From NCBI GenBank assembly GCA_964196085.1, contig CAXMSI010000002.1, positions 1 to 27,857 on the forward strand: 27,857 nt of DNA, in the 5' to 3' direction. Position 1 is the stretch's first letter, and each line of letters opens with the position of its first letter. This stretch comes from an uncultured Acidimicrobiia bacterium (GTDB lineage Bacteria > Actinomycetota > Acidimicrobiia > Spongiisociales > JAENVV01). Positions 6,238-19,638 of this stretch are shown piece after piece. A program made the position numbers and the translations under genes. A model generated the notes under the pieces. The model saw only the letters and a list, made by a program, of their open reading frames with translations, was not told the origin of the DNA and ran no database searches.

Positions 6238-7479
6238 CTAACGGACAAGCAATCTACCAGGGGCCATACGCACCAGTCGCTCGAGCATGAAGTAGGCATG
6301 CTCGGCTGTCTTCTTCTCTTCTTCTTCCAACAGGTTGGCCATGACCTTGAGCACCCACTCCATGAGAGGCTTCGACCGGAGTCCTGTTTTGGTGAGTGTC
6401 GACATCACCCACGGCTGCCCGATGGCCTTCACGAAGAGCCGGGCGAACCGGTAGTAGTCGCCATAGACCTCGTCGAGATAGTTCGGGTACGCCATCAGAT
6501 GCGACGGATCGTTGTTCTTCAAGGCATCTGCGATGAACCCCGCAGCAATTCGGCCGGTCTCGTACCCATAGGAGATGCCTTCGCCGTTCCACGGATTGAT
6601 GGCCCCAGCTGCGTCACCCACGGTGATCCAGTTGGGCCCAGCTTTCGGGCCTACAGAGAGTGCCATTGACAGCTTGCCACCACGGTGGGCTGTTGGGTTT
6701 GAGAGGTCCCAGCCCGCAGGTGCCCCGGCCGAGTAGGCGTGCATCATATCGGTTGTGTTTACATCTTTCCAGCGCTTGAAAGTCGAAAGCAAGCCAACCC
6801 CAACATTGACTGTGCCATCACCAAGCGGGAATATCCAACCGTATCCCGGCATTGCAGCGCCAGTCGAGTCCGTGATGTACAACTGTGATTCCATAAATGG
6901 GTCGGCAGATTTTGGCGAGTCAAAATACCCCCGAGCGGCGAGGCCCATGGGGTAATCGCGTCTCCTAGAAGTGCCAAGGGCCCGGCCGAACCTGCTTAAG
7001 GATCCGTCGGCGACGATTACATAATCGGCTGGAATTCGTTCTCGCTCGCCACCTCTGATGAGATCTACGTGAGTCACTCGGCCTGCTTCAACCACCGGCT
7101 CAGCAGTAGTGTTTTCAAACAGCGTGGCACCAGCAGCAACCGCGAGATTTACCACGTCGTGATCGAGGTCTGCCCTACGGATGATGGCTCCCCAGTTGGG
7201 GAACTTAGAGTGATCGGGCCACTGCATCTCCAACTTGAGCTCGGGGCCTCCGTAGCTGCGCAATCCGGTGATTCGATGCAGGCCAGACCTCGTGAAATCA
7301 AAATTGAACCCCATTCGCTGAAGCTCATGGATGGCCCTGGGGGTAAGCCCATCTCCACAGGTCTTCTCCCTAGGGAACGACTTCTTCTCGACCAGAGTGA
7401 CCTCAATACCCGCCTTGGCAAGCCAAAAAGCGGCAGCGGATCCGGCGGGACCAGCTCCCACAACAATGACGTTCGACAT
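6238..7479 (-). CDS. menJ: Geranylgeranyl reductase family FAD enzyme, probable menaquinone side-chain reductase (MenJ-like)
   Basis: Motifs VGAGPAGSAAA, FPREKTCGDGLTPRA, GYGWIFPLGDG and VGDAAGAINPWNGEGISY; located near a menaquinol-type bc complex. The symbol is a best guess. Confidence 0.75.
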   Translation of the reverse strand: MSNVIVVGAGPAGSAAAFWLAKAGIEVTLVEKKSFPREKTCGDGLTPRAIHELQRMGFNFDFTRSGLHRITGLRSYGGPELKLEMQWPDHSKFPNWGAIIRRADLDHDVVNLAVAAGATLFENTTAEPVVEAGRVTHVDLIRGGERERIPADYVIVADGSLSRFGRALGTSRRRDYPMGLAARGYFDSPKSADPFMESQLYITDSTGAAMPGYGWIFPLGDGTVNVGVGLLSTFKRWKDVNTTDMMHAYSAGAPAGWDLSNPTAHRGGKLSMALSVGPKAGPNWITVGDAAGAINPWNGEGISYGYETGRIAAGFIADALKNNDPSHLMAYPNYLDEVYGDYYRFARLFVKAIGQPWVMSTLTKTGLRSKPLMEWVLKVMANLLEEEEKKTAEHAYFMLERLVRMAPGRLLVR

Positions 7480-7556: not shown

Positions 7557-8171
7557 ATGAGCAAGAATACAGACATCCCCCGAGCGACCGTGAATCGCCT
7601 CCCCCGCTATCTCGCCGCTCTTGGGGCACTACCTAGGACCACAGTGACCCTGCGGTCGGCTGAGCTTTCTGCTGTCACCAACTTCTCGGACTCTTCGATC
7701 CGCAAGGATCTCTCACTGCTGAAGGTGTCAGGAACCCGAGGCGTTGGGTACGACGTTGTCCATCTTCAGGAAGCGATTAGGAAGACACTCGGTCTGGAAA
7801 AGGAACGCAATATCGCTCTCATCGGCGCGGGCAACCTCGGTTCAGCTTTGGCAAACTACCGGGGGCTTCTAGACGCGGGTTTTCTACTCACCAACATCTT
7901 TGATGCTGGCGCACACACTATTGGTTCGATCGTCGGCGGACTCGTCGTGCAACCCATGGAGGAACTGCACTCAATGGAGAACGTCTCCATCGCGATTCTG
8001 GCAGTCCCTCAGCGAGCCGCACAGGGAGTGGCCGATCGGCTGCTTGAAGCGGGGATCACGTCAATCTTGAACTTCGCGCCCAAGATGCTGAACCTTCCGA
8101 CGGGAGTCATCTCAAGAAACGTTGATCTCTCTACAGAACTCCAGGTCTTGGCGTACTTCGATCAGGGATGA
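7557..8171 (+). CDS. rex: Redox-sensing transcriptional repressor Rex
   Basis: wHTH motifs IPRATVNRLPRY and IRKDLS...GTRGVGYDV; Rossmann IGAGNLGSAL; ILNFAP...RNVDLSTEL. Confidence 0.95.
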   Translation: MSKNTDIPRATVNRLPRYLAALGALPRTTVTLRSAELSAVTNFSDSSIRKDLSLLKVSGTRGVGYDVVHLQEAIRKTLGLEKERNIALIGAGNLGSALANYRGLLDAGFLLTNIFDAGAHTIGSIVGGLVVQPMEELHSMENVSIAILAVPQRAAQGVADRLLEAGITSILNFAPKMLNLPTGVISRNVDLSTELQVLAYFDQG

Positions 8172-10705: not shown

Positions 10706-11068
10706 CTACTCCATTTCCTTGTCTTGTTCGGACTCGTACTTTGACAAGGCCATGAGAAACATGGTCATCAGGATCAACGAAGCGATCATCCAAGTGAGTG
10801 GAATGATTCGAACTTCAAAAGCATTCATGCCATCGATATCTGCTGGACGTGGTCCACGGGGGGCGTAGAGCACAAACAGCAGCGAGTTGATCGATGTCCA
10901 GGCGAATAGCGCTGCCCCAGAGACCAAGAAAGCGAGCTTTTTGCCCAGGTTCGTCGCGTTGAGAAGGTAAGTGGTCCCATAGAACGTGATAACGGCACCA
11001 ATAGTGATCAGAATCCCGGTCACGAAGAGGTTGGCAGAGAGGAGTCCTCTCATGAATTCCCTAATCAT
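10706..11068 (-). CDS. Small membrane protein, last gene of the cytochrome bc operon
   Basis: Three hydrophobic segments and TNLGKKLAFL. ATGA overlap with the cytochrome c stop codon. Confidence 0.75.
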   Translation of the reverse strand: MIREFMRGLLSANLFVTGILITIGAVITFYGTTYLLNATNLGKKLAFLVSGAALFAWTSINSLLFVLYAPRGPRPADIDGMNAFEVRIIPLTWMIASLILMTMFLMALSKYESEQDKEME

Positions 11069-12450
11069 TCGTCACCTCCAACGTCTGGTCCGCCCAGTGT
11101 TGGGCCCCATAGATACTCTGCGATCAGCTCAAGTTCTTCTTGGGTGAGTAGCCCTCCGAAGCCCGGCATGAAGCCTCGGCCAATGCCGTTGATGCCGTAG
11201 GCCACACCCGAATCTGATCCCGAGGAAATGAAACCGGCGAGGTCACCAACCTCAGCGAACTGCACGTGGGCTCGTGGTGGCAGGAGCGAAGGGCCGAAGC
11301 CACCAGACGCTATTGGCAGTACAAACGGGGACCCAGCCGAGTATCCAGCCGTGTGGCATCGGGCGCAGTTACCCGAGAAAAGGTTTATTGCCTGGGTGGC
11401 CTTTTCCGTATCCCCATCAAAAGTTGCATTTGCAACCGCTTGCACATCAACCGTCCAGTAGGCCGTTTCGGCTGAGGCGATGAGATAAGCCAAGCCACCC
11501 TGAAGTTGGGCAATCACCGCATCAGCACTTTCAGAGAACACCTCAACCGTACTTGTAGCCGACGCGACTAGGTCGGCCTGTTTACTAGCCACGACAAGGT
11601 CGGACTCGATTGCATTTGTTACTGGGTTAAAGCTGTCAAGCGTTATTGCGCTCAGGCCACTTTCGTAGTCGGTCAGCCCAGCAATAAGGTTCTGCATTGC
11701 AACGTTGATCCGTTGCGCTTCATCTACCCGCCCTGGAGCGGCGTGGGCTGCAGCTAGCTTGACTTCTTGAGCGGCGATCATGGCCTCGAGGTTCGCCTCA
11801 GCATTGTTTCGGTAGCCGTCAGCGGCTGAAACTTCGGCTGCCATCACTTCGACAGCTTCGTCTTGCGGTAACTGCTGCTCTTGGAGATAGTTGAGGATAT
11901 CTTCAACCTGTTGATCGTTCAAGACCCCGCCACCGGCTGTTCCCCAAGCTGGCATTGGCGTACCAGCTCGGCCAAAGACAATCCAGAACTTGACCTCTTC
12001 GCGGGAGTATCGGTACAAGATGGTGTCGAGACGCGGTGCTCCCCAAGTCGTGGAGACTTCTGATTGCGGGTGGATTGTCCCTGCCGCTCCGCCTACGAAC
12101 CCAGGCCCATGGCACCCCTGACAATCAAAACCGCCTTCTGCGGTGGTCGCAGACAGCGCAGCACCACGCTCAAGCGACTCTTCGGCGAAGGCTTCAATGA
12201 AGTCGCCCTGCCGATCTCGTTCGGTAAGGAAATACAGCGGAAGTGTGACGGCAGCGAACGCAGCGAAGATCAACGACCAGAACAAAGCGCGCTCGAGCCG
12301 AGACGTCTCGAGTTCCTTGTTGGACATTGGGGGAGCGAGGTTGGCTGGCACCTCTTCTTGAGCCTGTGATCGCACGGTGGAAACCATGAGGTAGGCAAGC
12401 CAACCAACGATGGCAATGGCAACAAGAACAACAGCGAGACTGTTGATCAC
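11065..12450 (-). CDS. Membrane-anchored di-heme c-type cytochrome of the bc complex (QcrC-like role)
   Basis: Two N-terminal TM helices; CQGCH with distal MPAWG and CARCH with distal MPGFG; a long helical linker between the two domains. Confidence 0.9.
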   Translation of the reverse strand: MINSLAVVLVAIAIVGWLAYLMVSTVRSQAQEEVPANLAPPMSNKELETSRLERALFWSLIFAAFAAVTLPLYFLTERDRQGDFIEAFAEESLERGAALSATTAEGGFDCQGCHGPGFVGGAAGTIHPQSEVSTTWGAPRLDTILYRYSREEVKFWIVFGRAGTPMPAWGTAGGGVLNDQQVEDILNYLQEQQLPQDEAVEVMAAEVSAADGYRNNAEANLEAMIAAQEVKLAAAHAAPGRVDEAQRINVAMQNLIAGLTDYESGLSAITLDSFNPVTNAIESDLVVASKQADLVASATSTVEVFSESADAVIAQLQGGLAYLIASAETAYWTVDVQAVANATFDGDTEKATQAINLFSGNCARCHTAGYSAGSPFVLPIASGGFGPSLLPPRAHVQFAEVGDLAGFISSGSDSGVAYGINGIGRGFMPGFGGLLTQEELELIAEYLWGPTLGGPDVGGDE

Positions 12451-12466: not shown

Positions 12467-13321
12467 TCAAATACATGACGGACCCTTCGGGTACTTCACG
12501 CTCTTATCCGAAGAGCGGGCAGTATTAACGATGCTTCCGGTCTTTGCGATGAGTCGATTCTTGTCATTGATTTCGACGACGAAACGGTCGAGGTTCCTAG
12601 GTGCCGGCCCTGCTTCGTACTCGCCCAGAGCGTTGTACTTTGAGCCGTGACAACCGCACTCAAACCCCTTAGATGAATCGCACCAAGGGACACGGCAACC
12701 CAGGTGAACACAAGTCATGAACAACGCGGTGAGCCCGCCAACTACGGTGGAGTTCTCCTCGAATTGGGATCCGGTGGCCTCCTCTTCGTTGACCGGCACG
12801 ATCCACGCGCGGGCTTCAGCCCAGAAGAGTGGCGAGACAGACCCGTCAGGAAGCCGGACAGCTGCGAGCAGTTCGTCGGCATCCCCAAGATCGATGTCAG
12901 CACCGAACCCGCCACTTACCACCGGCCACATCATCGCAAGCGTACTGAGGCCGAGCGTTCCCAGATAGGCAAAAAACACCATTGCCATTGCTTTGCCGAA
13001 GAAATGGCGCCGGTTGGCTCCTGCTTCCTCTTCAGAAATCTCTACAACTTTGACAACCTCAACCGACCTAACGACAGGCACACTTGCGTCATCATCTTCG
13101 TCTGCCGCGACCAGTAAATCACCTTCGCCAGCCTCGTCTTCGCCATCAGCAGTAGCCACCACCACCGGATCGATAGCTCCCCGATCAGCCTTCGCCGCTG
13201 CTGGCTGCACTTCGCTGCGCCAGTCAGCCGTCGCGGACGATGAACGCCGAAAAGCTACAGCGAAGAGCCCAATGAGGGCGAGTACAAACAGGGAACCGAG
13301 CCCAACTATCAGACTATCCAT
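12467..13321 (-). CDS. qcrA: Rieske 2Fe-2S subunit of the cytochrome bc complex
   Basis: Rieske boxes CVHLGC and CGCHGSKY; GPAPRNLDRF; internal twin-arginine motif NRRHFF before the second TM. Confidence 0.93.
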   Translation of the reverse strand: MDSLIVGLGSLFVLALIGLFAVAFRRSSSATADWRSEVQPAAAKADRGAIDPVVVATADGEDEAGEGDLLVAADEDDDASVPVVRSVEVVKVVEISEEEAGANRRHFFGKAMAMVFFAYLGTLGLSTLAMMWPVVSGGFGADIDLGDADELLAAVRLPDGSVSPLFWAEARAWIVPVNEEEATGSQFEENSTVVGGLTALFMTCVHLGCRVPWCDSSKGFECGCHGSKYNALGEYEAGPAPRNLDRFVVEINDKNRLIAKTGSIVNTARSSDKSVKYPKGPSCI

Positions 13322-14123
13322 GATGCAGCTCCGGGAAGAAGATCCAGTCCTTCAGGTCGTCAAAGAAGATTCCATCGTTCCAGGGGTACGTGAAGTTAAA
13401 GCCGGGACCCCTGAAGAGCACACCAATGATGGTGAGCGTTGCCGAACCCATCATGAATATGGTGTACATAAAAATTGCAAACTTACGATCAGACGGCTTG
13501 TTTGACGGGTTCTTGTCAACGTACGGAATAGCCATGAACCCAATCATTCCAGTAATAGTTGGTACCGAGACTCCGGCAATCTGTGGGTCGAAGTACGACA
13601 ACAGTTCCTGAAGTCCGAGGAAGTACCACGGGGCCTTCGACGGGTTAGGCGTGGCATTGAAGTTGGCCGCTTCAAGAAGCGGAGCCTGAAGGATGGTCGA
13701 CAGTATTACCAGCAAGGCAAGCATCGCCAAGAGAGCTCCCAACTCAACGACCACGAGATGGGGCCAGGTGTTGACCTTGTCAGTAGGAGTTGACTTGGCA
13801 CCCTGAATGGCCTTGGCTCGGACAACAGTCAGGAGTCGCTGCGTGCGAACACCTTCGGGACCGGTTTGAGCAGGCTGGGTTGGACGGACCAGCGTTGCTT
13901 GGCCAGGAGTCGAAGCAGCCGGCGAGTGTTCAACCGTTGCGGGCTCAGCGGCTACTGGCGCTTGTTCTACCGCCGCTGGCTCGACTGGGGCGGGAGCCAC
14001 TTCGGCGACTGGAGTCGGCGGAGCCTCACCAGTCATTTGAGCCATAGCCTCGGCTACGGACACGCCCAATGCAGCAGCCCTTGCCTCCGCTGAACGTTGA
14101 AGAAGATGGTCTGGAATCTGCAC
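13314..14123 (-). CDS. Cytochrome b C-terminal part (subunit IV / PetD-like) with an N-terminal tag and Pro/Ala linker
   Basis: TPNPSKAPWYFLGLQELL (PEWY-equivalent), IPYVDKNPS and three TM helices. Confidence 0.9.
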   Translation of the reverse strand: MQIPDHLLQRSAEARAAALGVSVAEAMAQMTGEAPPTPVAEVAPAPVEPAAVEQAPVAAEPATVEHSPAASTPGQATLVRPTQPAQTGPEGVRTQRLLTVVRAKAIQGAKSTPTDKVNTWPHLVVVELGALLAMLALLVILSTILQAPLLEAANFNATPNPSKAPWYFLGLQELLSYFDPQIAGVSVPTITGMIGFMAIPYVDKNPSNKPSDRKFAIFMYTIFMMGSATLTIIGVLFRGPGFNFTYPWNDGIFFDDLKDWIFFPELHHG

Positions 14124-14134
14124 GATCGAATCTC

Positions 14135-14896
14135 CTATAGCGGCCCTGAAATACCGCCATCCTTACGAACTCTCCAGAAGTGGACAGCCATAAAGAAGAT
14201 GATGACGAACGGGAAAAAGATCACATGCAGCGTATACCAACGGAGCAACGTGTCAGCTGAAACTGCGTAGGCTCCGAGGAGCAAGAATTGAACCCCGCCG
14301 CCGAAGACCGGGACAAATGAAGCCATGTTGGTTCCGACTGTCACTGCCCACAAAGCAAGCTGATCCCACGGGAGCAGATAGCCAGTGAAGGAAAGCAGCA
14401 ACGTGAGGAGCAAGAGGATGACGCCAACCACCCAGTTGAACTCACGTGGTGGCTTGTAGGCTCCGTGGTAGAACACACGGCTCATGTGCAGGAAGACGGA
14501 AAGCACCATGAGGTGAGCACCCCATCGATGCATGTTTCGTACAAGCGAACCAAATGCGACGTCAGTGGAGAGCTGTTGGATGTCCTCGTAAGCCGCCGCA
14601 GCTGTAGGCGCGTAGTAGAACATCAGGAAAATTCCTGTGATGGTCAGCATGATGAAGAGAAAGAAGCTGATCCCACCAAGGCAGAGGGTGTAGGAGAGCC
14701 GCACCCCGTGACGCTTCACCTTCACTGGGTGGAGGTGATAGAGCACGTTGTTCATGATCACGTACGAGCGGTTTCGCGGGCTGTCCGAGTATCCCTTCTT
14801 GAAAGGGGAGCCAGGACGAAGGATCGAGTCCATGAGGGAGCTGCCGTGAAGGTCTCCGGGGGCACCTTTGAGTTTCTCGATAAGAGTCTTAATCAT
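14135..14896 (-). CDS. qcrB: Cytochrome b N-terminal part (cytochrome b6-like, four TM)
   Basis: Heme His pairs in MHRWGAHLMVLSVFLHM and LHVIFFPFVIIFFMAVH; FTGYLLPWDQ; ends in GISGPL; Cys in YTLCLGG. Confidence 0.95.
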   Translation of the reverse strand: MIKTLIEKLKGAPGDLHGSSLMDSILRPGSPFKKGYSDSPRNRSYVIMNNVLYHLHPVKVKRHGVRLSYTLCLGGISFFLFIMLTITGIFLMFYYAPTAAAAYEDIQQLSTDVAFGSLVRNMHRWGAHLMVLSVFLHMSRVFYHGAYKPPREFNWVVGVILLLLTLLLSFTGYLLPWDQLALWAVTVGTNMASFVPVFGGGVQFLLLGAYAVSADTLLRWYTLHVIFFPFVIIFFMAVHFWRVRKDGGISGPL

Positions 14897-14901
14897 GGTC
14901 C

Positions 14902-15348
14902 TTACATTCCTCGTACGCCATAGACGTATCCGTTCTTATGGTCGCGGGCGCCCGTATCGACTGCCCAAGGGGACGGAAGTTCAGCTTCTGTGGCCTGGGC
15001 GGCGACTGAACCGTCAAACTTTCCAAGCGTGATGACGTTGGTAGGGCACCGATCAATGCACAGCGCGCACCTTGTGCATGTGTCCTCGTCAACCATGAAA
15101 AACCCAAAGTTCTCCATGTCGTCATTGGGGTTTGTTACATCCTTTGCGTCCGCAATAGCGTCTGTTGACAAATAATGAATGCACTTCCACGGGCAGATGT
15201 CAACACACCCTTCGCACAAGATGCACTCGGACTGGTTGATGTGGAGGAACTGCTTCGGCTTGAGATTGTCTGAGAGGTAACCAGTGTCAACAAGGGCAAG
15301 CTGGTAATCATCACGCATTGGCGGAATTTCGAAATAGGTATCTGCCAT
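14902..15348 (-). CDS. 2x[4Fe-4S] dicluster ferredoxin
   Basis: CILCEGCVDICP and CTRCALCIDRCP. The ATG at 15348 overlaps the upstream TAA (TAATG). Confidence 0.92.
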   Translation of the reverse strand: MADTYFEIPPMRDDYQLALVDTGYLSDNLKPKQFLHINQSECILCEGCVDICPWKCIHYLSTDAIADAKDVTNPNDDMENFGFFMVDEDTCTRCALCIDRCPTNVITLGKFDGSVAAQATEAELPSPWAVDTGARDHKNGYVYGVRGM

Positions 15349-15947: not shown

Positions 15948-16036
15948 TCCGCTGATGCGTCCTTTTAACGAGAGAAACTGTCGCCAACGCTCGACGCGCT
16001 GTCGGCTGTATGTAAGCAGATTGCGCGGCTGCTGGG

Positions 16037-16059
16037 GAATCAAAGAGCCGCTTTGACTC
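16037..16059. promoter_or_regulatory. Palindromic candidate operator in the divergent promoter region
   Basis: GAaTCAAAG-agccg-CTTTGAcTC: perfect 6-bp arms (16040-16045 / 16051-16056) with further outer pairing. Confidence 0.45.
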
Positions 16060-16163
16060 AGGCGCCCTGAAACGCAAAAATGACGATGCACCGCCGATAG
16101 GCGCTCAGCGTCCACTCGTGCCAGACTATCGTGTCCTCGACACTCAATTTCAAGGAGCAAAAG

Positions 16164-17579
16164 TTGGTCACTACCAACGCACCCGCCACCACCCAAGTAG
16201 CGGGACGAACCGACGCTACAGCCAAGTGGGCGCTCCTTATTGGGGCCTTCCTCCTGGCGGCGGCCACGGCCATCTTGTTCATGGCCTGGACGGTATTCAC
16301 GGTTCCGTCAGAAGGAGCTGGATTCCTCGGCTTTGGTCGCCTCTTTCCAATGGCTACCACGCTCACTGTCTTTGGAGCCTTCGTAGCCCTGAACCTGGGC
16401 GTATTGCTCTTTCTTCTCCCTCGCCTCACCGGTGCATCCACCAATCGTTCCGGCACCCTTGCCGCCTTGTTCTGGCTCAGCACAGTCTCAGCCGTGGTCG
16501 GAACTGGAGTAGTTGGGTTCGGCGGCACCGATGGAAGGCAAGGATTTGAATTGCCGTGGCTCGCAGAACTGCTCCTAGTTCTGGGTGTCGGCGGGATTGC
16601 AGTTATAGCAATCAAGGCCCTTTTTGATCGCAAGGAGGATTCGATCTATCCAACCACCTGGTTCATGGTGGGAGGCTTGCTCTCTTTCATCACGGCAATC
16701 GCTGTCGCTAATCTCCCGATCGCTCGGGGGCCAGGAGCCGGTATCCCAGTAGCCTTTGGCCGGGGCGTAGTGCTTTGGGTTTGGATTTTAGGATTCGCAA
16801 TTGGTGCCATGCTCTACCTCGTACCCAAGGAAAGCGGCCGGCCGCTTTTTAGCCGTCAGGTCGCAATAGGTACCTTTGTGAGCCTCATGATGGCGGGCAT
16901 GTTCTACGGACTGTCCACCACACTCTTCGGACCGCTGCCTGATTGGGCAGAAACCGTCGGGGTTGCCATGGGACTACTGCTGCTGGTGCCTGCTGTCACG
17001 GTTCCCGTCCTCCTCGTCAAAACCCTCGACGGTGCCTTCGATCAACTGCAAACTTCTGTTCCCTTGCGGTTCGCTGTTGCCGGCGTAGTTGCCTTCAGCC
17101 TCGGCGCTGCTGTCTCGGCGATCAGTGGGCTTCGTTCATTCGCTGAACTCCTCGGCCTAACAACCTTCCGAGACGGCACCGAAACACTCCTTGTGTTCGG
17201 GGCAGGCATCCTGCTGACATCAGCCTTCGTGTATCACGCAATACCTCGGCTAACCGGCCGCACCCTCCACTCTGAGCAACTAGCTAAACGACACCTTCAA
17301 TTCACCGTGGTTGGTGCCGGTGGAATCACCGTCCTCTTATGGCTCTCTGGGATCGCGACAGGAAGCACCTGGTTGGCTGGAATCAAGTCCAGCCTGTTCG
17401 CCGCATCAGGAGAAGGCTTCTCAGCTTCCTTAACTGCTTCAGAATGGGCCCATCCGTGGCTCCTACTTTCGGGATTCATCCTCTTTCTTGGACAGCTGAT
17501 ATTTGTGACCAACCTGTACCGGACGCTTATCTCAGGTGATGTTGCCCCGGTAGAGATCGTCACGGAGGTGTCCGAGTGA
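16164..17579 (+). CDS. cbb3-type heme-copper oxidase subunit I (CcoN) homologue lacking the canonical His ligands
   Basis: About 12 TM helices with CcoN scaffold motifs FGRLFP, QGFELPW, IYPTTWF, YLVPKESGRPLFS, LPDWAETVG and YHAIPRL. TTG at 16164 follows AAGGAG (GTG 16131 is an alternative). Confidence 0.85.
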   Translation: MVTTNAPATTQVAGRTDATAKWALLIGAFLLAAATAILFMAWTVFTVPSEGAGFLGFGRLFPMATTLTVFGAFVALNLGVLLFLLPRLTGASTNRSGTLAALFWLSTVSAVVGTGVVGFGGTDGRQGFELPWLAELLLVLGVGGIAVIAIKALFDRKEDSIYPTTWFMVGGLLSFITAIAVANLPIARGPGAGIPVAFGRGVVLWVWILGFAIGAMLYLVPKESGRPLFSRQVAIGTFVSLMMAGMFYGLSTTLFGPLPDWAETVGVAMGLLLLVPAVTVPVLLVKTLDGAFDQLQTSVPLRFAVAGVVAFSLGAAVSAISGLRSFAELLGLTTFRDGTETLLVFGAGILLTSAFVYHAIPRLTGRTLHSEQLAKRHLQFTVVGAGGITVLLWLSGIATGSTWLAGIKSSLFAASGEGFSASLTASEWAHPWLLLSGFILFLGQLIFVTNLYRTLISGDVAPVEIVTEVSE

Positions 17580-18331
17580 GCGACTTCCTTACCGCAGCCG
17601 CCACCAACATCGGTGCTCCAGAAGATCTCGTCAAGCGATCAGCTGATGCGCGATCAGAGGCATCGGGATCCAGCGTTGACGATATCCTTGCCGCCTGGGC
17701 TGGCGGAGCGGCAGCACCCGTGGCCGCCGAATCCCCTGCACCGGACGCTGCTATCGCCCCAGAAGCCAATCCGGCCGAACCAGCTGTGTCCTCAGCGCCC
17801 TCAGCCGCCCCAACAGCGCGGGTGGTCACGGTCAGAGACCCTGAGGCTGCCCCGATACTCGTTGGCCGAAGAGAGAGCCCAAAAGCCATGATCCTCACGC
17901 TCCTCGGCCTACTGGCGTTCGGCGTGCTTGTAGGCGCATGGCTGCCGGCGGTGGCCGCGTCCCAAGAGGCCTCGAACCACGTCACCGCCCAACCTCTGTA
18001 CTCGGCAGATGCTGAACTGGGCCGAGAAATTTACTTGGCTGAGGGCTGCTCGACTTGCCACACTATGTCGGTGCGCTCCCTTGAGGTTGACGCCGGCCTT
18101 GGCCTGATCACCGAGCCCGAAGATATTGCAAACTTTTTTGAATCCGTCGAAGGTGTCCGTCGAATCGGGCCAGATCTGGCTCATATAGGCGAACGTATGG
18201 AAGCTAAAGACATTAAAGCCTTCGTCTCAAACCCAACCTTCGTGCGAGCTGACGCTCACCACCCGCCATACAAGTACTTGTCTGCAGATGAAATTGATGA
18301 CCTGACCACATTCCTCTCGGAGACGAAGTGA
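17576..18331 (+). CDS. CcoO-like mono-heme cytochrome c (cbb3 subunit II homologue) with an N-terminal tag
   Basis: GREIYLAEGCSTCHTMSVR and RRIGPDLAHIG match CcoO; one TM helix; GTGA overlap with the upstream gene. Confidence 0.85.
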   Translation: MSDFLTAAATNIGAPEDLVKRSADARSEASGSSVDDILAAWAGGAAAPVAAESPAPDAAIAPEANPAEPAVSSAPSAAPTARVVTVRDPEAAPILVGRRESPKAMILTLLGLLAFGVLVGAWLPAVAASQEASNHVTAQPLYSADAELGREIYLAEGCSTCHTMSVRSLEVDAGLGLITEPEDIANFFESVEGVRRIGPDLAHIGERMEAKDIKAFVSNPTFVRADAHHPPYKYLSADEIDDLTTFLSETK

Positions 18332-19638
18332 TGAGCGACTTCCTATCCGCTGCCGCTAACAACATTGGGGCACCAGAAGAGCTCGTGCAGCGCTCAGCTG
18401 AAGCGAGAGCAGAAGCTACCGGAGCGTCGGTCGAAGACATCTTGGCCGAGTGGGCGGGCGGCGCAGCTGCATCCTCTCCCCCACAAGCTAAGGCGCCAGA
18501 AGCCGAAGCATTAGCATCAACTCCTGCACCGCCCGCGGAGACTCAGATAGAGCCTGCAGCACCAGTCATCGACATCCCCACCAGTCCAGCCGGCGGGCAA
18601 GTAGTCAGAGCGTTCCTCCCAACTCCGGCCACGGTCACACGAGCAGAGGCCATGGCATTCGACCAGGTCACCACCGTTGCCGCTGCCGGGCTCAAGGAGC
18701 GGACCTCGGTGAGAGTCCCTCGCTGGCTGGTGGCCATCTTTGCTGCAATCCCGATCCTTGCTGGTGGATACCTCATCGTGAACTCCGGTGGGGTTGAATG
18801 TGGACAGGCCGGACAACTGGGTGTTGACTTTGCTGGGAACCTCCAGACATGTGAGCAACGAGCCTACGACTTCACACCTGGCGCCTCTGGCGGGGGCGAA
18901 GGCATCGACCTCGTTGCCGAACTTCAGGCCGGAGCGGGGCTCTATCTTGCTGAGTGCTCCTCTTGCCACACAACGGACGGGTCAGCAGGCGTTGGCCCTC
19001 AGCTCAACGGCGGGGCAGTGCTTGAGACCTGGCCAGCATGCACCGATCATTTCAACTGGGTAGCAAGCGGTAGTGCTGGATGGAGCGAAGCAACTTACGG
19101 AGCTCAAGGTAAGCCAGTTGGCGGCGGCGGGCAAATGCCAGGATTCATCCCCAAGCTCACTAACGATCAGATCACTCAGATCGTGCTCTACGAACGAGTC
19201 ACATTTGGCGGTCAGGACATCAGCGAGGCCGGAGAAGACTGCGGCTACGAACTAGAAGCCCCCGGTGTCGAAGGTGAACCAGTAGCCAGCGGCGTTGACG
19301 CCATCGCTGAGCTCACCGCCGGCAAAGAGATCTACACGGCGCGCTGCCAGGCATGCCACCTTGAAGATGGAAGCCAAGGCGTTGGCCCGGTCCTCAACGG
19401 CGGGGCAGTGCTCGAGACGTTCCCAGCATGCGATGCTCAAGTTGAGTGGGTCGGGCTCGGAAGCGCTGCTTGGCCTGAAGACACGTATGGGGCTCAAGCA
19501 AAGCCAGTTGGCTCGGGGATGCCGGGATTCTTAAGTCAAATCAGTATCGACGAAATCAAACAGGTCGTCTTCTACGAGCGAGTTGCATTCGGTAATGCCG
19601 ACCTCGAACAAGCAGCAGCCGACTGCTTCGGCGCTTAA
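18331..19638 (+). CDS. Membrane-anchored di-heme cytochrome c with two duplicated domains and an N-terminal tag
   Basis: CSSCH...QMPGF and CQACH...GMPGF; one TM helix; start is GTG 18328 or ATG 18331. Confidence 0.9.
   Translation: MSDFLSAAANNIGAPEELVQRSAEARAEATGASVEDILAEWAGGAAASSPPQAKAPEAEALASTPAPPAETQIEPAAPVIDIPTSPAGGQVVRAFLPTPATVTRAEAMAFDQVTTVAAAGLKERTSVRVPRWLVAIFAAIPILAGGYLIVNSGGVECGQAGQLGVDFAGNLQTCEQRAYDFTPGASGGGEGIDLVAELQAGAGLYLAECSSCHTTDGSAGVGPQLNGGAVLETWPACTDHFNWVASGSAGWSEATYGAQGKPVGGGGQMPGFIPKLTNDQITQIVLYERVTFGGQDISEAGEDCGYELEAPGVEGEPVASGVDAIAELTAGKEIYTARCQACHLEDGSQGVGPVLNGGAVLETFPACDAQVEWVGLGSAAWPEDTYGAQAKPVGSGMPGFLSQISIDEIKQVVFYERVAFGNADLEQAAADCFGA
18991..19431 (+). repeat. Internal domain duplication (390-bp offset)
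   Basis: 18991-19041 and 19381-19431 are near-identical and share the exact 20-mer CTCAACGGCGGGGCAGTGCT. Confidence 0.85.

Follow-up and report, generated by a model that had tools for sequence, protein, structure and literature searches.

A widespread CcoN homologue without haem and copper ligands in Acidimicrobiia, probably retained as a scaffold for one-electron carriers

Introduction

The DNA analysed here is a 27,857-nucleotide stretch (below, the window) of contig CAXMSI010000002.1 from an uncultured Acidimicrobiia bacterium. It encodes a homologue of CcoN, subunit I of the cbb3-type cytochrome c oxidases, which we call pCcoN and which has none of the residues that bind haem b, haem b3 and CuB in CcoN. 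What such a protein may be doing, next to genes for c-type cytochromes and for a quinol-oxidising complex, is the question raised by this locus. We consider it probable, at a rough probability of 0.6, that pCcoN is a catalytically dead, cofactor-less scaffold on which one-electron carriers are held between the quinol-oxidising complex and the real oxidase. The metagenome-assembled genome (MAG) holding the window has a size of 1.8 Mb and is 72% complete, and the DNA runs containing the window sequence are marine-sediment and ice metagenomes.

An intact CcoN fold

The gene and the codons at the former ligand positions are located as follows.

16164-17579, plus strand: pCcoN, 471 amino acids, cbb3 subunit I homologue with the full CcoN helical-bundle fold (predicted), without haem and CuB ligands
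16353-16355, plus strand: codon of A64, at the position of haem b ligand H60 (RLFPMAT), from HMMER and the multiple alignments
16761-16766, plus strand: codons of R200-G201, at the position of CuB ligand H207 (FGRGV), R200 by HMMER and G201 by MAFFT
16896-16919, plus strand: codons of G245 to T252, with G245 at the cross-linked Y251 and S251/T252 at the CuB ligands H257/H258, from the alignments
17178-17186, plus strand: codons of T339-E340-T341, with T339 at H345 (haem b3) and T341 at H347 (haem b), DGT replacing GHxH, from the alignments

The start codon of pCcoN is a TTG at position 16164, with a Shine-Dalgarno sequence (AAGGAG) 6 nt upstream. The protein is a real member of the haem-copper oxidase (HCO) superfamily and belongs to subunit I. 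It scores 88.8 bits against the Pfam family COX1 (PF00115; gathering score 34.8, E 4.6e-25), and its predicted fold agrees with this assignment. The NCBIfam equivalog for CcoN, TIGR00780, gave 118.8 bits against a cut-off of 583.15, so that pCcoN falls outside the equivalog. Its top match among all PDB chains (phmmer) is nevertheless CcoN from P. stutzeri (3mk7_A, E 3e-25).

An AlphaFold2 model of pCcoN, built on 20 ligand-less homologues, is a helical bundle with a predicted local distance difference test (pLDDT) score of 85.8 and a predicted template modelling (pTM) score of 0.88. The closest Foldseek match of this model is CcoN of 3MK7, with a template modelling (TM) score of 0.88 and a root-mean-square deviation of 2.7 Å. 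NorB and the A- and B-type subunits I reached TM scores of 0.72-0.79 (NorB 0.74-0.78), and the bc1-cbb3 supercomplex structures 6XKW, 8SMR and 9G83 are among the structural neighbours. An earlier reading of the locus, made from the sequence alone, had described an intact CcoN homologue of about 470 amino acids, and the length, the PF00115 match and the Foldseek TM score agree with that description. The comparison of a predicted structure with 3MK7, which the same reading had suggested, returned an intact fold, and the sequence alignments place no His at the ligand positions.

Loss of the redox centres

All six His ligands of CcoN and the cross-linked Tyr are missing from pCcoN, leaving it with neither of the two sets of residues by which a CcoN is recognised, and there is no conserved Tyr close to G245 that could stand in for Y251. 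This loss had been proposed by eye in the sequence-only reading and is borne out by the HMMER alignment to 3mk7_A. One detail of that proposal, the replacement of H207 by Gly, needs a small correction: no His is found there, and HMMER places R200 at the position where MAFFT places G201, a difference of at most one residue. The count of four His in the whole protein was right. These are H358, H369, H377 and one in the region of H431; canonical CcoN conserves H358 and H377 too, but not as metal ligands. The same seven residues are missing in all of the 17 Acidimicrobiia orthologues that were translated and aligned, and the copies from streamlined genomes of about 1 Mb have just 1-2 His per approximately 465 amino acids.

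Further losses came to light when 44 ligand-less sequences from the window's clade were compared column by column with 20 canonical CcoN sequences. Sites were regarded as lost if their conservation reached 90% or more in the canonical set but stayed below 50% in the ligand-less clade. Besides the six His and the Tyr, these are R61 (the second Arg of GRLRP), E126, N107, T209, S270, Y311, Q317, G318, R433 and G437, among which we presume that there are haem-propionate and Ca contacts as well as proton-path residues. Both sets share residues, mostly Gly, Pro, Trp and Arg, in loops and where helices end (G58, R59, G71, R87, G120, Y218, F238, W239, P257, W261, G307, T333, G346, P361, G384, G396 and G400). 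Only four sites, G90, F198, L241 and E464, are conserved specifically in the ligand-less clade, and as judged from the alignment none suggests a plausible metal or substrate site. Substitute ligands were not seen either, as no conserved Met, Lys, Cys, Tyr, Asp or His occupies a former ligand position in this comparison.

The proton path appears to have gone as well. The residues which we take to form it in cbb3 oxidases are Y223, S240, H243, T215 and Y317, numbered as in the literature on 3MK7. In the alignment to 3mk7_A, Y223 is replaced by L, S240 by A and H243 by T, and a Thr and a Tyr that are 100% conserved in canonical CcoN are lost at pCcoN positions 209 and 311. Nor does pCcoN resemble NorB or qNOR in its ligands, since the columns of the three His that bind FeB together with a Glu, and of the His that bind haems b and b3, contain no His. 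The selective loss of ligand and proton-path sites, with the Gly, Pro, Trp and Arg sites retained, indicates that selection has been relaxed exactly where the cofactor and proton machinery lies, and has been maintained on the architecture. Judged by these residues, pCcoN cannot be an O2 or NO reductase and is predicted to be free of cofactors.

Purifying selection and distribution

The ratio of non-synonymous to synonymous substitution rates (dN/dS) of pCcoN is 0.05-0.08 against two metagenomic orthologues that are 89% and 76% identical to it (L090 and L093). These ratios are rough because dS is near saturation, though their direction is clear, and they lie in the same range as those of neighbouring housekeeping genes, namely the S-adenosylmethionine hydrolase, CLP1-like and cytochrome b6 genes. 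Intact-frame homologues were found in 37 of the 41 genomes of the same order (a tally that includes one unpublished genome, G036, used for no other result), in 66 of the 151 genomes sampled from the class, including streamlined genomes of about 1 Mb, and in 32 of 301 sampled from the phylum, some from families outside the class. Intact orthologues at 26-45% identity occur across the class and beyond. Whether ligand loss is clade-wide, with dN/dS well below 1, had been raised by the sequence-only reading; both turned out to be the case, given the 17 ligand-less orthologues and the ratios above. A first contig scan with close relatives of pCcoN gave canonical alphaproteobacterial CcoN only.

In one single-contig genome of about 1 Mb (G121, C1:1003026-1003850) the pCcoN match is interrupted by one TGA and three TAA codons, with an open frame of 250 amino acids. 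The stops reflect either a true loss that is under way or errors of long-read assembly.

Cytochrome partners

Two cytochrome c genes follow pCcoN, and an N-terminal tag is shared with a subunit of the divergent operon described below.

17576-18331, plus strand: pCcoO, CcoO/FixO-like monohaem cytochrome c (CSTCH) with a cytoplasmic N-terminal tag and one transmembrane helix (PF02433, E 3.8e-14)
18328-19638, plus strand: CcoP-like membrane-anchored dihaem cytochrome c (CSSCH, CQACH) with an N-terminal tag (PF13442 and PF00034, two stretches)
13944-14123, minus strand: shared N-terminal motif in the subunit IV-like protein, ahead of its transmembrane helices
17576-17700, plus strand: shared N-terminal motif in pCcoO, ahead of its transmembrane helix
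18328-18460, plus strand: shared N-terminal motif in the CcoP-like protein, ahead of its transmembrane anchor

The order of the three genes, subunit I, monohaem cytochrome c and dihaem cytochrome c with overlapping starts, is that of a cbb3 operon. Stop and start codons overlap in GTGA at 17576-17579 (pCcoN/pCcoO) and at 18328-18331 (pCcoO/CcoP-like gene); the first of these overlaps makes good the earlier suggestion that pCcoN is translationally coupled to the CcoO-like gene. General library scans recognised neither ccoGHIS nor ccoQ in the window, where no search aimed at these genes was made.

The CxxCH sites of pCcoO and of the CcoP-like protein are universally retained among the relatives compared. 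The distal Met of the pCcoO haem is replaced by His229 (codon 18260-18262; AHHPPY compared with SKMPSY in the alignment to 3mk7_B and 9g6b_B). A His is found at this position also in L079, L090, L093, L100, L101 and L105, which represent this order and lineages with genomes of about 1 Mb, whereas the distal Met is kept in other ligand-less systems (L102-L104, P0032, P0044 and clade A). The pCcoO haem of this order is therefore predicted to be His/His ligated and to have a lower potential.

Subunit IV, pCcoO and the CcoP-like protein have in common an N-terminal motif of about 35 amino acids, P-E/D-x-L-V/L-x-RSA-E/D-AR...G-x-SV. Cross-hits between the proteins showed it to be present also in the relatives L100, L101, L104 and L105.

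The divergent bc operon

Upstream of pCcoN, and transcribed away from it, lies an operon encoding a ferredoxin, a b6-type cytochrome, a Rieske protein and a dihaem cytochrome c.

15948-16163, no strand: divergent intergenic spacer of 216 bp between the two operons; same layout in L079, L091, L097 and L100-L105
15348-15947, minus strand: membrane protein of 199 amino acids without family match, encoded by the first gene of the bc operon and conserved together with that operon
14902-15348, minus strand: 2x[4Fe-4S] ferredoxin, 148 amino acids from the ATG (Fer4 families); orthologue of 148 amino acids in L091
14135-14896, minus strand: cytochrome b6-type subunit (PF00033, E 2.7e-47)
13314-14123, minus strand: subunit IV-like protein with the shared N-terminal tag (PF00032)
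12467-13321, minus strand: Rieske iron-sulfur subunit (PF00355; NCBIfam PetC-like)
11065-12450, minus strand: dihaem cytochrome c of the bc operon (CQGCH, CARCH)
10706-11068, minus strand: membrane protein of 120 amino acids, last gene of the bc operon and conserved with it

A Pfam search gave no match for the shared N-terminal tag, the 199-aa protein or the 120-aa protein. The pCcoN operon is divergent from the ferredoxin-b6-subunit IV-Rieske-cytochrome c operon in every Acidimicrobiia locus that was read, and the full ten-gene arrangement recurs in relatives of several families, including two genomes of about 1 Mb (L079, L091, L100-L105). The cytochrome b6 gene was found in 148 of the 151 class genomes at 74-89% identity, and it is the only cytochrome b found in genome G002.

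The bc operon does not depend on its divergent neighbour in all lineages. In families f13, f14 and f18 (L121-L125; genomes G051, G042, G046, G140 and G100) it is kept in full where pCcoN and pCcoO are both missing, and in four of these five loci a divergent CcoP-like cytochrome c gene stands next to a MenJ-like FAD reductase gene. The joint absence of pCcoN and pCcoO suggests that they are gained or lost as a unit.

The ferredoxin gene directly precedes the cytochrome b6-type gene, which carries the Cys of YTLCLGG (14135-15348, minus strand), and the two genes are conserved as a pair throughout the class as well as in L094 and L097, which are distant metagenomic relatives. A second cytochrome b gene is present on another contig of the MAG (G000:C25:12753-13280, 163 bits to PF00033). 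Less than 9 kb from the locus are a rex-type redox-sensing regulator gene (7557-8171, plus strand) and a gene for a geranylgeranyl-reductase-like (MenJ-like) FAD protein (6238-7479, minus strand). Both types of gene are also near the locus in L097, and the FAD protein is also encoded in L094, L120, L121, L122 and L125.

The wider ligand-less family

A HMMER search of 1.8 billion representatives returned 751 matches at E <=1e-3. Among 166 sequences compared (search hits, word-search hits and the query), 37 had the canonical HHYHHHH set and 129 did not, the latter including a few fragments or members with partial ligands. Some of the long ligand-less homologues have a FixO haem-c domain fused at the C terminus. 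In two others, P0035 and P0076, extra transmembrane helices join the ligand-less CcoN to a cupredoxin whose type-1 Cu motif (H ... C-x2-H-x2-M) is intact.

Contigs could be found for three distant members of the window's clade, which show 28-30% identity. P0032 and P0044 adjoin, in divergent orientation, a full ferredoxin-b6-subunit IV-Rieske-cytochrome c operon, and P0035, the cupredoxin fusion, is on a contig of 9 kb on which only the ferredoxin end of the bc operon is present. The cupredoxin-fusion gene is directly upstream of a COX2 gene with CuA and cytochrome c domains. At locus L096 (5020-7104) the cupredoxin-fused gene stands between ResA-ResB-CcsA and COX2. A fourth member, P0028, is beside a FixO gene near nuo genes, with no bc operon in view.

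In trees, the ligand-less proteins form two groups, each nested among canonical CcoN. The window's clade is a single branch in IQ-TREE with a support of 98 in the Shimodaira-Hasegawa-like approximate likelihood ratio test (SH-aLRT), and the approximately unbiased (AU) test rejects a tree uniting both groups (difference in log-likelihood 142, p 6e-5), the groups having been named after the first tree had been seen. The nesting and the AU test indicate that the redox centre was lost, and the protein kept, at least twice.

The second clade was traced on one contig. Its member P0016 (L118, 8001-9482), whose nearest genomes are Verrucomicrobiota, is directly downstream of an Alternative Complex III operon encoding ActB, an NrfD-type ActC, ActD, ActE and ActF, and FixO and cytochrome c genes come after P0016. 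Scanning with clade-A sequences gave 80 loci, of which six were ligand-less and the rest mostly canonical verrucomicrobial CcoN. The six ligand-less verrucomicrobial loci are L126, L156, L177, L191, L192 and L198.

The terminal oxidase

The sequence-only reading had proposed to look for a separate, active oxidase, and a separate A-type oxidase is encoded by relatives and, as a fragment, by the MAG itself. Eight related genomes, four of them fairly complete relatives and four further genomes of the class, were searched with PF00115, and all eight have an A-type subunit I (517-530 bits). In six, this CoxI is the only candidate found for an HCO with full ligands; the other two (G014 and G035) have additional COX1 matches of 215-322 bits. 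Three genomes of about 1 Mb, all among the six, have exactly one A-type CoxI and pCcoN. On contig C123 of the window's MAG, the sequence starts within the C-terminal part of an A-type CoxI, and CoxIII comes next. Neither COX2 nor cytochrome bd turned up in the MAG, which is 72% complete.

Proposed role of pCcoN

The sequence-only reading had taken the protein for a cofactor-less membrane scaffold for c-type cytochromes and not for a reductase of O2 or NO. The clade-wide ligand loss, the intact predicted fold and the purifying selection that we observed support this, and further support comes from the natural fusions to haem-c and type-1 Cu carrier domains and from the conserved neighbourhood, in which the link to a quinol-oxidising complex is constant. 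A constant platform combined with a one-electron carrier, which may be haem c, in a separate CcoO-like subunit or as a fused domain, or blue copper, likewise fused, is what would be expected of a scaffold. The same is true of a platform that adjoins a quinol:cytochrome c oxidoreductase in both clades.

The scaffold could function as follows. pCcoN would keep its partnership with pCcoO and the CcoP-like cytochrome and would bind no haem b, haem b3 or CuB. As a platform it would keep the one-electron carriers on the outside of the membrane, beside the ferredoxin/b6/Rieske complex. Electrons would leave the bc complex at its own dihaem cytochrome, pass to the carriers held by pCcoN, and end at the A-type aa3/caa3 oxidase. 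The physical association with the bc complex or with aa3, suggested by gene order and the shared tag, is inferred, and so are the direction and destination of electron flow. Soluble periplasmic carriers are not known from Actinobacteria, so that a relay held in the membrane is plausible.

Several observations weigh against this proposal. A haem with predicted His/His ligation fits a downhill relay to aa3 less well, though the chain probably uses menaquinone. In several families the bc operon and a CcoP-like gene are kept without pCcoN and pCcoO, so the module is not indispensable to the bc complex and is dispensable for bc function in some lineages. Despite the nearby rex gene, no Rex operator was matched in the window, the divergent promoter included, with up to three mismatches allowed, which does not fit neatly. 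Among the runs listed as containing the window sequence none is an RNA run, all being DNA metagenomes.

Alternative explanations

pCcoN might instead have taken on a new function of its own, such as binding of menaquinone or lipid in the former haem cavities, ion conduction, or handling of haem or copper for cytochrome maturation, the cytochromes being secondary. We consider this unlikely. In its favour, the small residues (A, G, S, T) at the ligand positions could leave cavities, the gene follows the cytochrome c maturation genes ResA-ResB-CcsA in two distant relatives, and retention in streamlined genomes of about 1 Mb argues for a function worth its cost. The membrane part has, however, no clade-specific conserved polar or metal-binding residue and no longer has the proton-path residues, neither ResB nor CcsA was found in the window, and pCcoN and pCcoO are lost together in some families, as would one structural unit. 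The channel and the assembly factor that the sequence-only reading had offered as alternatives gained no support, for the same reasons of lost proton-path residues and the lack of a new conserved polar site. pCcoN could also serve merely in the assembly or stability of a b6c-aa3 supercomplex, with the attached cytochromes off the main electron path, in the manner of the inactive core proteins of mitochondrial bc1. Divergent operons with an N-terminal tag common to subunits of both, the bc1-cbb3 supercomplexes among the structural neighbours of the model (6XKW, 8SMR, 9G83), and the fact that the bc operon already has a dihaem cytochrome c of its own would all fit such a role. It is made quite improbable by the universal retention of the CxxCH sites in pCcoO and the CcoP-like protein, and by lineages in which the payload has been swapped for a functional-looking blue-copper domain. 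The interchange of haem c and blue copper points to electron transfer as the function under selection.

Two further explanations are effectively excluded, as far as can be judged from the column comparison and dN/dS. That pCcoN is still a redox enzyme reducing O2, NO or another substrate with non-His ligands is very improbable. The HCO superfamily does tolerate changes of ligands, with Asp for His in gNOR and Lys or Met on the low-spin haem in eNOR and nNOR (PMC11214002), but in the present case all seven positions have changed at once and differently between lineages, no conserved Met, Lys, Cys, Tyr or Asp could act as a replacement, and the propionate and Ca contacts, as we presume them to be, have been lost too. 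A decaying pseudogene or an annotation artefact is hardly credible. The stops inside the copy of the G121 genome and the loss of the gene in several families might be read that way, but pCcoN has an intact open reading frame with a Shine-Dalgarno site, a dN/dS of 0.05-0.08, a confident AlphaFold2 model and intact orthologues at 26-45% identity across the class and beyond. This explanation was rejected on dN/dS and on the intact orthologues throughout the order and class. Neutral decay of this copy, with orthologues that retain the His, is what the sequence-only reading had named as a finding that would speak against its proposal; the low dN/dS and the 17 ligand-less orthologues are the opposite.

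A more far-reaching version of the scaffold proposal can be imagined, which we consider speculative and rather improbable. The aerobic chain of Acidimicrobiia, including the very abundant marine Actinomarinales-like lineages with genomes of about 1 Mb, might pass through an undescribed obligate supercomplex in which a hollow CcoN bolts the ferredoxin-bearing b6-type Rieske complex to aa3. The empty CcoN, by its former haem cavities or its interface, might bind menaquinone or control how electrons are divided between the oxidase and another acceptor, and the same conversion might have occurred independently behind Alternative Complex III in Verrucomicrobiota.

Comparison with known systems

pCcoN is similar to the cbb3 oxidases CcoNOP (P. 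stutzeri 3MK7/5DJQ, R. capsulatus 6XKW and P. aeruginosa 8SMR) in the fold of subunit I and in the N-O-P gene order, and shares with CcoN the loop motifs GR..P, YxVPK..RP, PDWA and YHxxPR..GR. As in the bc1-cbb3 supercomplexes there is a link, here by gene neighbourhood, to a quinol:cytochrome c complex. It differs from cbb3 by the absence of the ligands for haem b, haem b3 and CuB, the cross-linked Tyr, the K-path analogue and the presumed propionate and Ca contacts, and, in this order, by the His in place of the distal Met of CcoO.

Mitochondrial bc1 offers a parallel, as its core 1 and core 2 proteins are inactive peptidases of the MPP type. There too a formerly catalytic protein is kept as a structural subunit, as we propose for pCcoN, which has another fold and origin and in which the lost activity is the terminal redox reaction itself. 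Non-oxidase relatives of subunit I were reportedly described by Pei, Li, Kinch and Grishin in 2014 under the name of HCO-homology (HCOH) proteins, such as NnrS, in which families of 12 transmembrane helices are said to keep two His, probably for one haem, and to be remote from CcoN. In these, as in pCcoN, a homologue of HCO subunit I with fewer His ligands would have a role other than that of an oxidase; pCcoN, unlike them, is an easily aligned derivative of CcoN with no ligands and with CcoO and CcoP partners. Full-text literature searches found no description of a ligand-less CcoN; the HCOH families appear to be the closest published idea.

The latest survey of the HCO superfamily, by Murali et al. 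(2024), recognised twelve families (PMC11214002). Like the nitric oxide reductases (NOR) cNOR, qNOR, eNOR, sNOR, gNOR and nNOR and the nitric oxide dismutase (NOD), pCcoN is a member without the active-site Tyr and predicted not to reduce O2. The NOR and NOD families keep the His of their haems and metal (PMC11214002), whereas pCcoN has all six replaced. According to the survey, gNOR was the first member to replace even one active-site His, these being conserved in all the other families (PMC11214002). On the sequences compared here, the pCcoN family is a cofactor-less pseudo-enzyme branch of the C-family.

Implications

In database sources these proteins carry the name 'cbb3-type cytochrome c oxidase subunit I', and published surveys of MAGs have credited Acidimicrobiales with cbb3 oxidases, for instance in nine MAGs (PMC8357290). 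If such calls rest on pCcoN, the inferences of high-affinity, low-oxygen respiration drawn from them would be wrong for a widespread class.

The discarding of a whole redox centre, at least twice and with the protein kept, stands against the near-universal conservation of the active-site His in the superfamily survey (PMC11214002). Furthermore, the family would provide a natural example of the interchange of haem-c and blue-copper payloads on one membrane platform. The locus as a whole points to an undescribed architecture, in which a ferredoxin/b6-type Rieske complex may be linked to the terminal oxidase in bacteria that lack soluble carriers in the periplasm.

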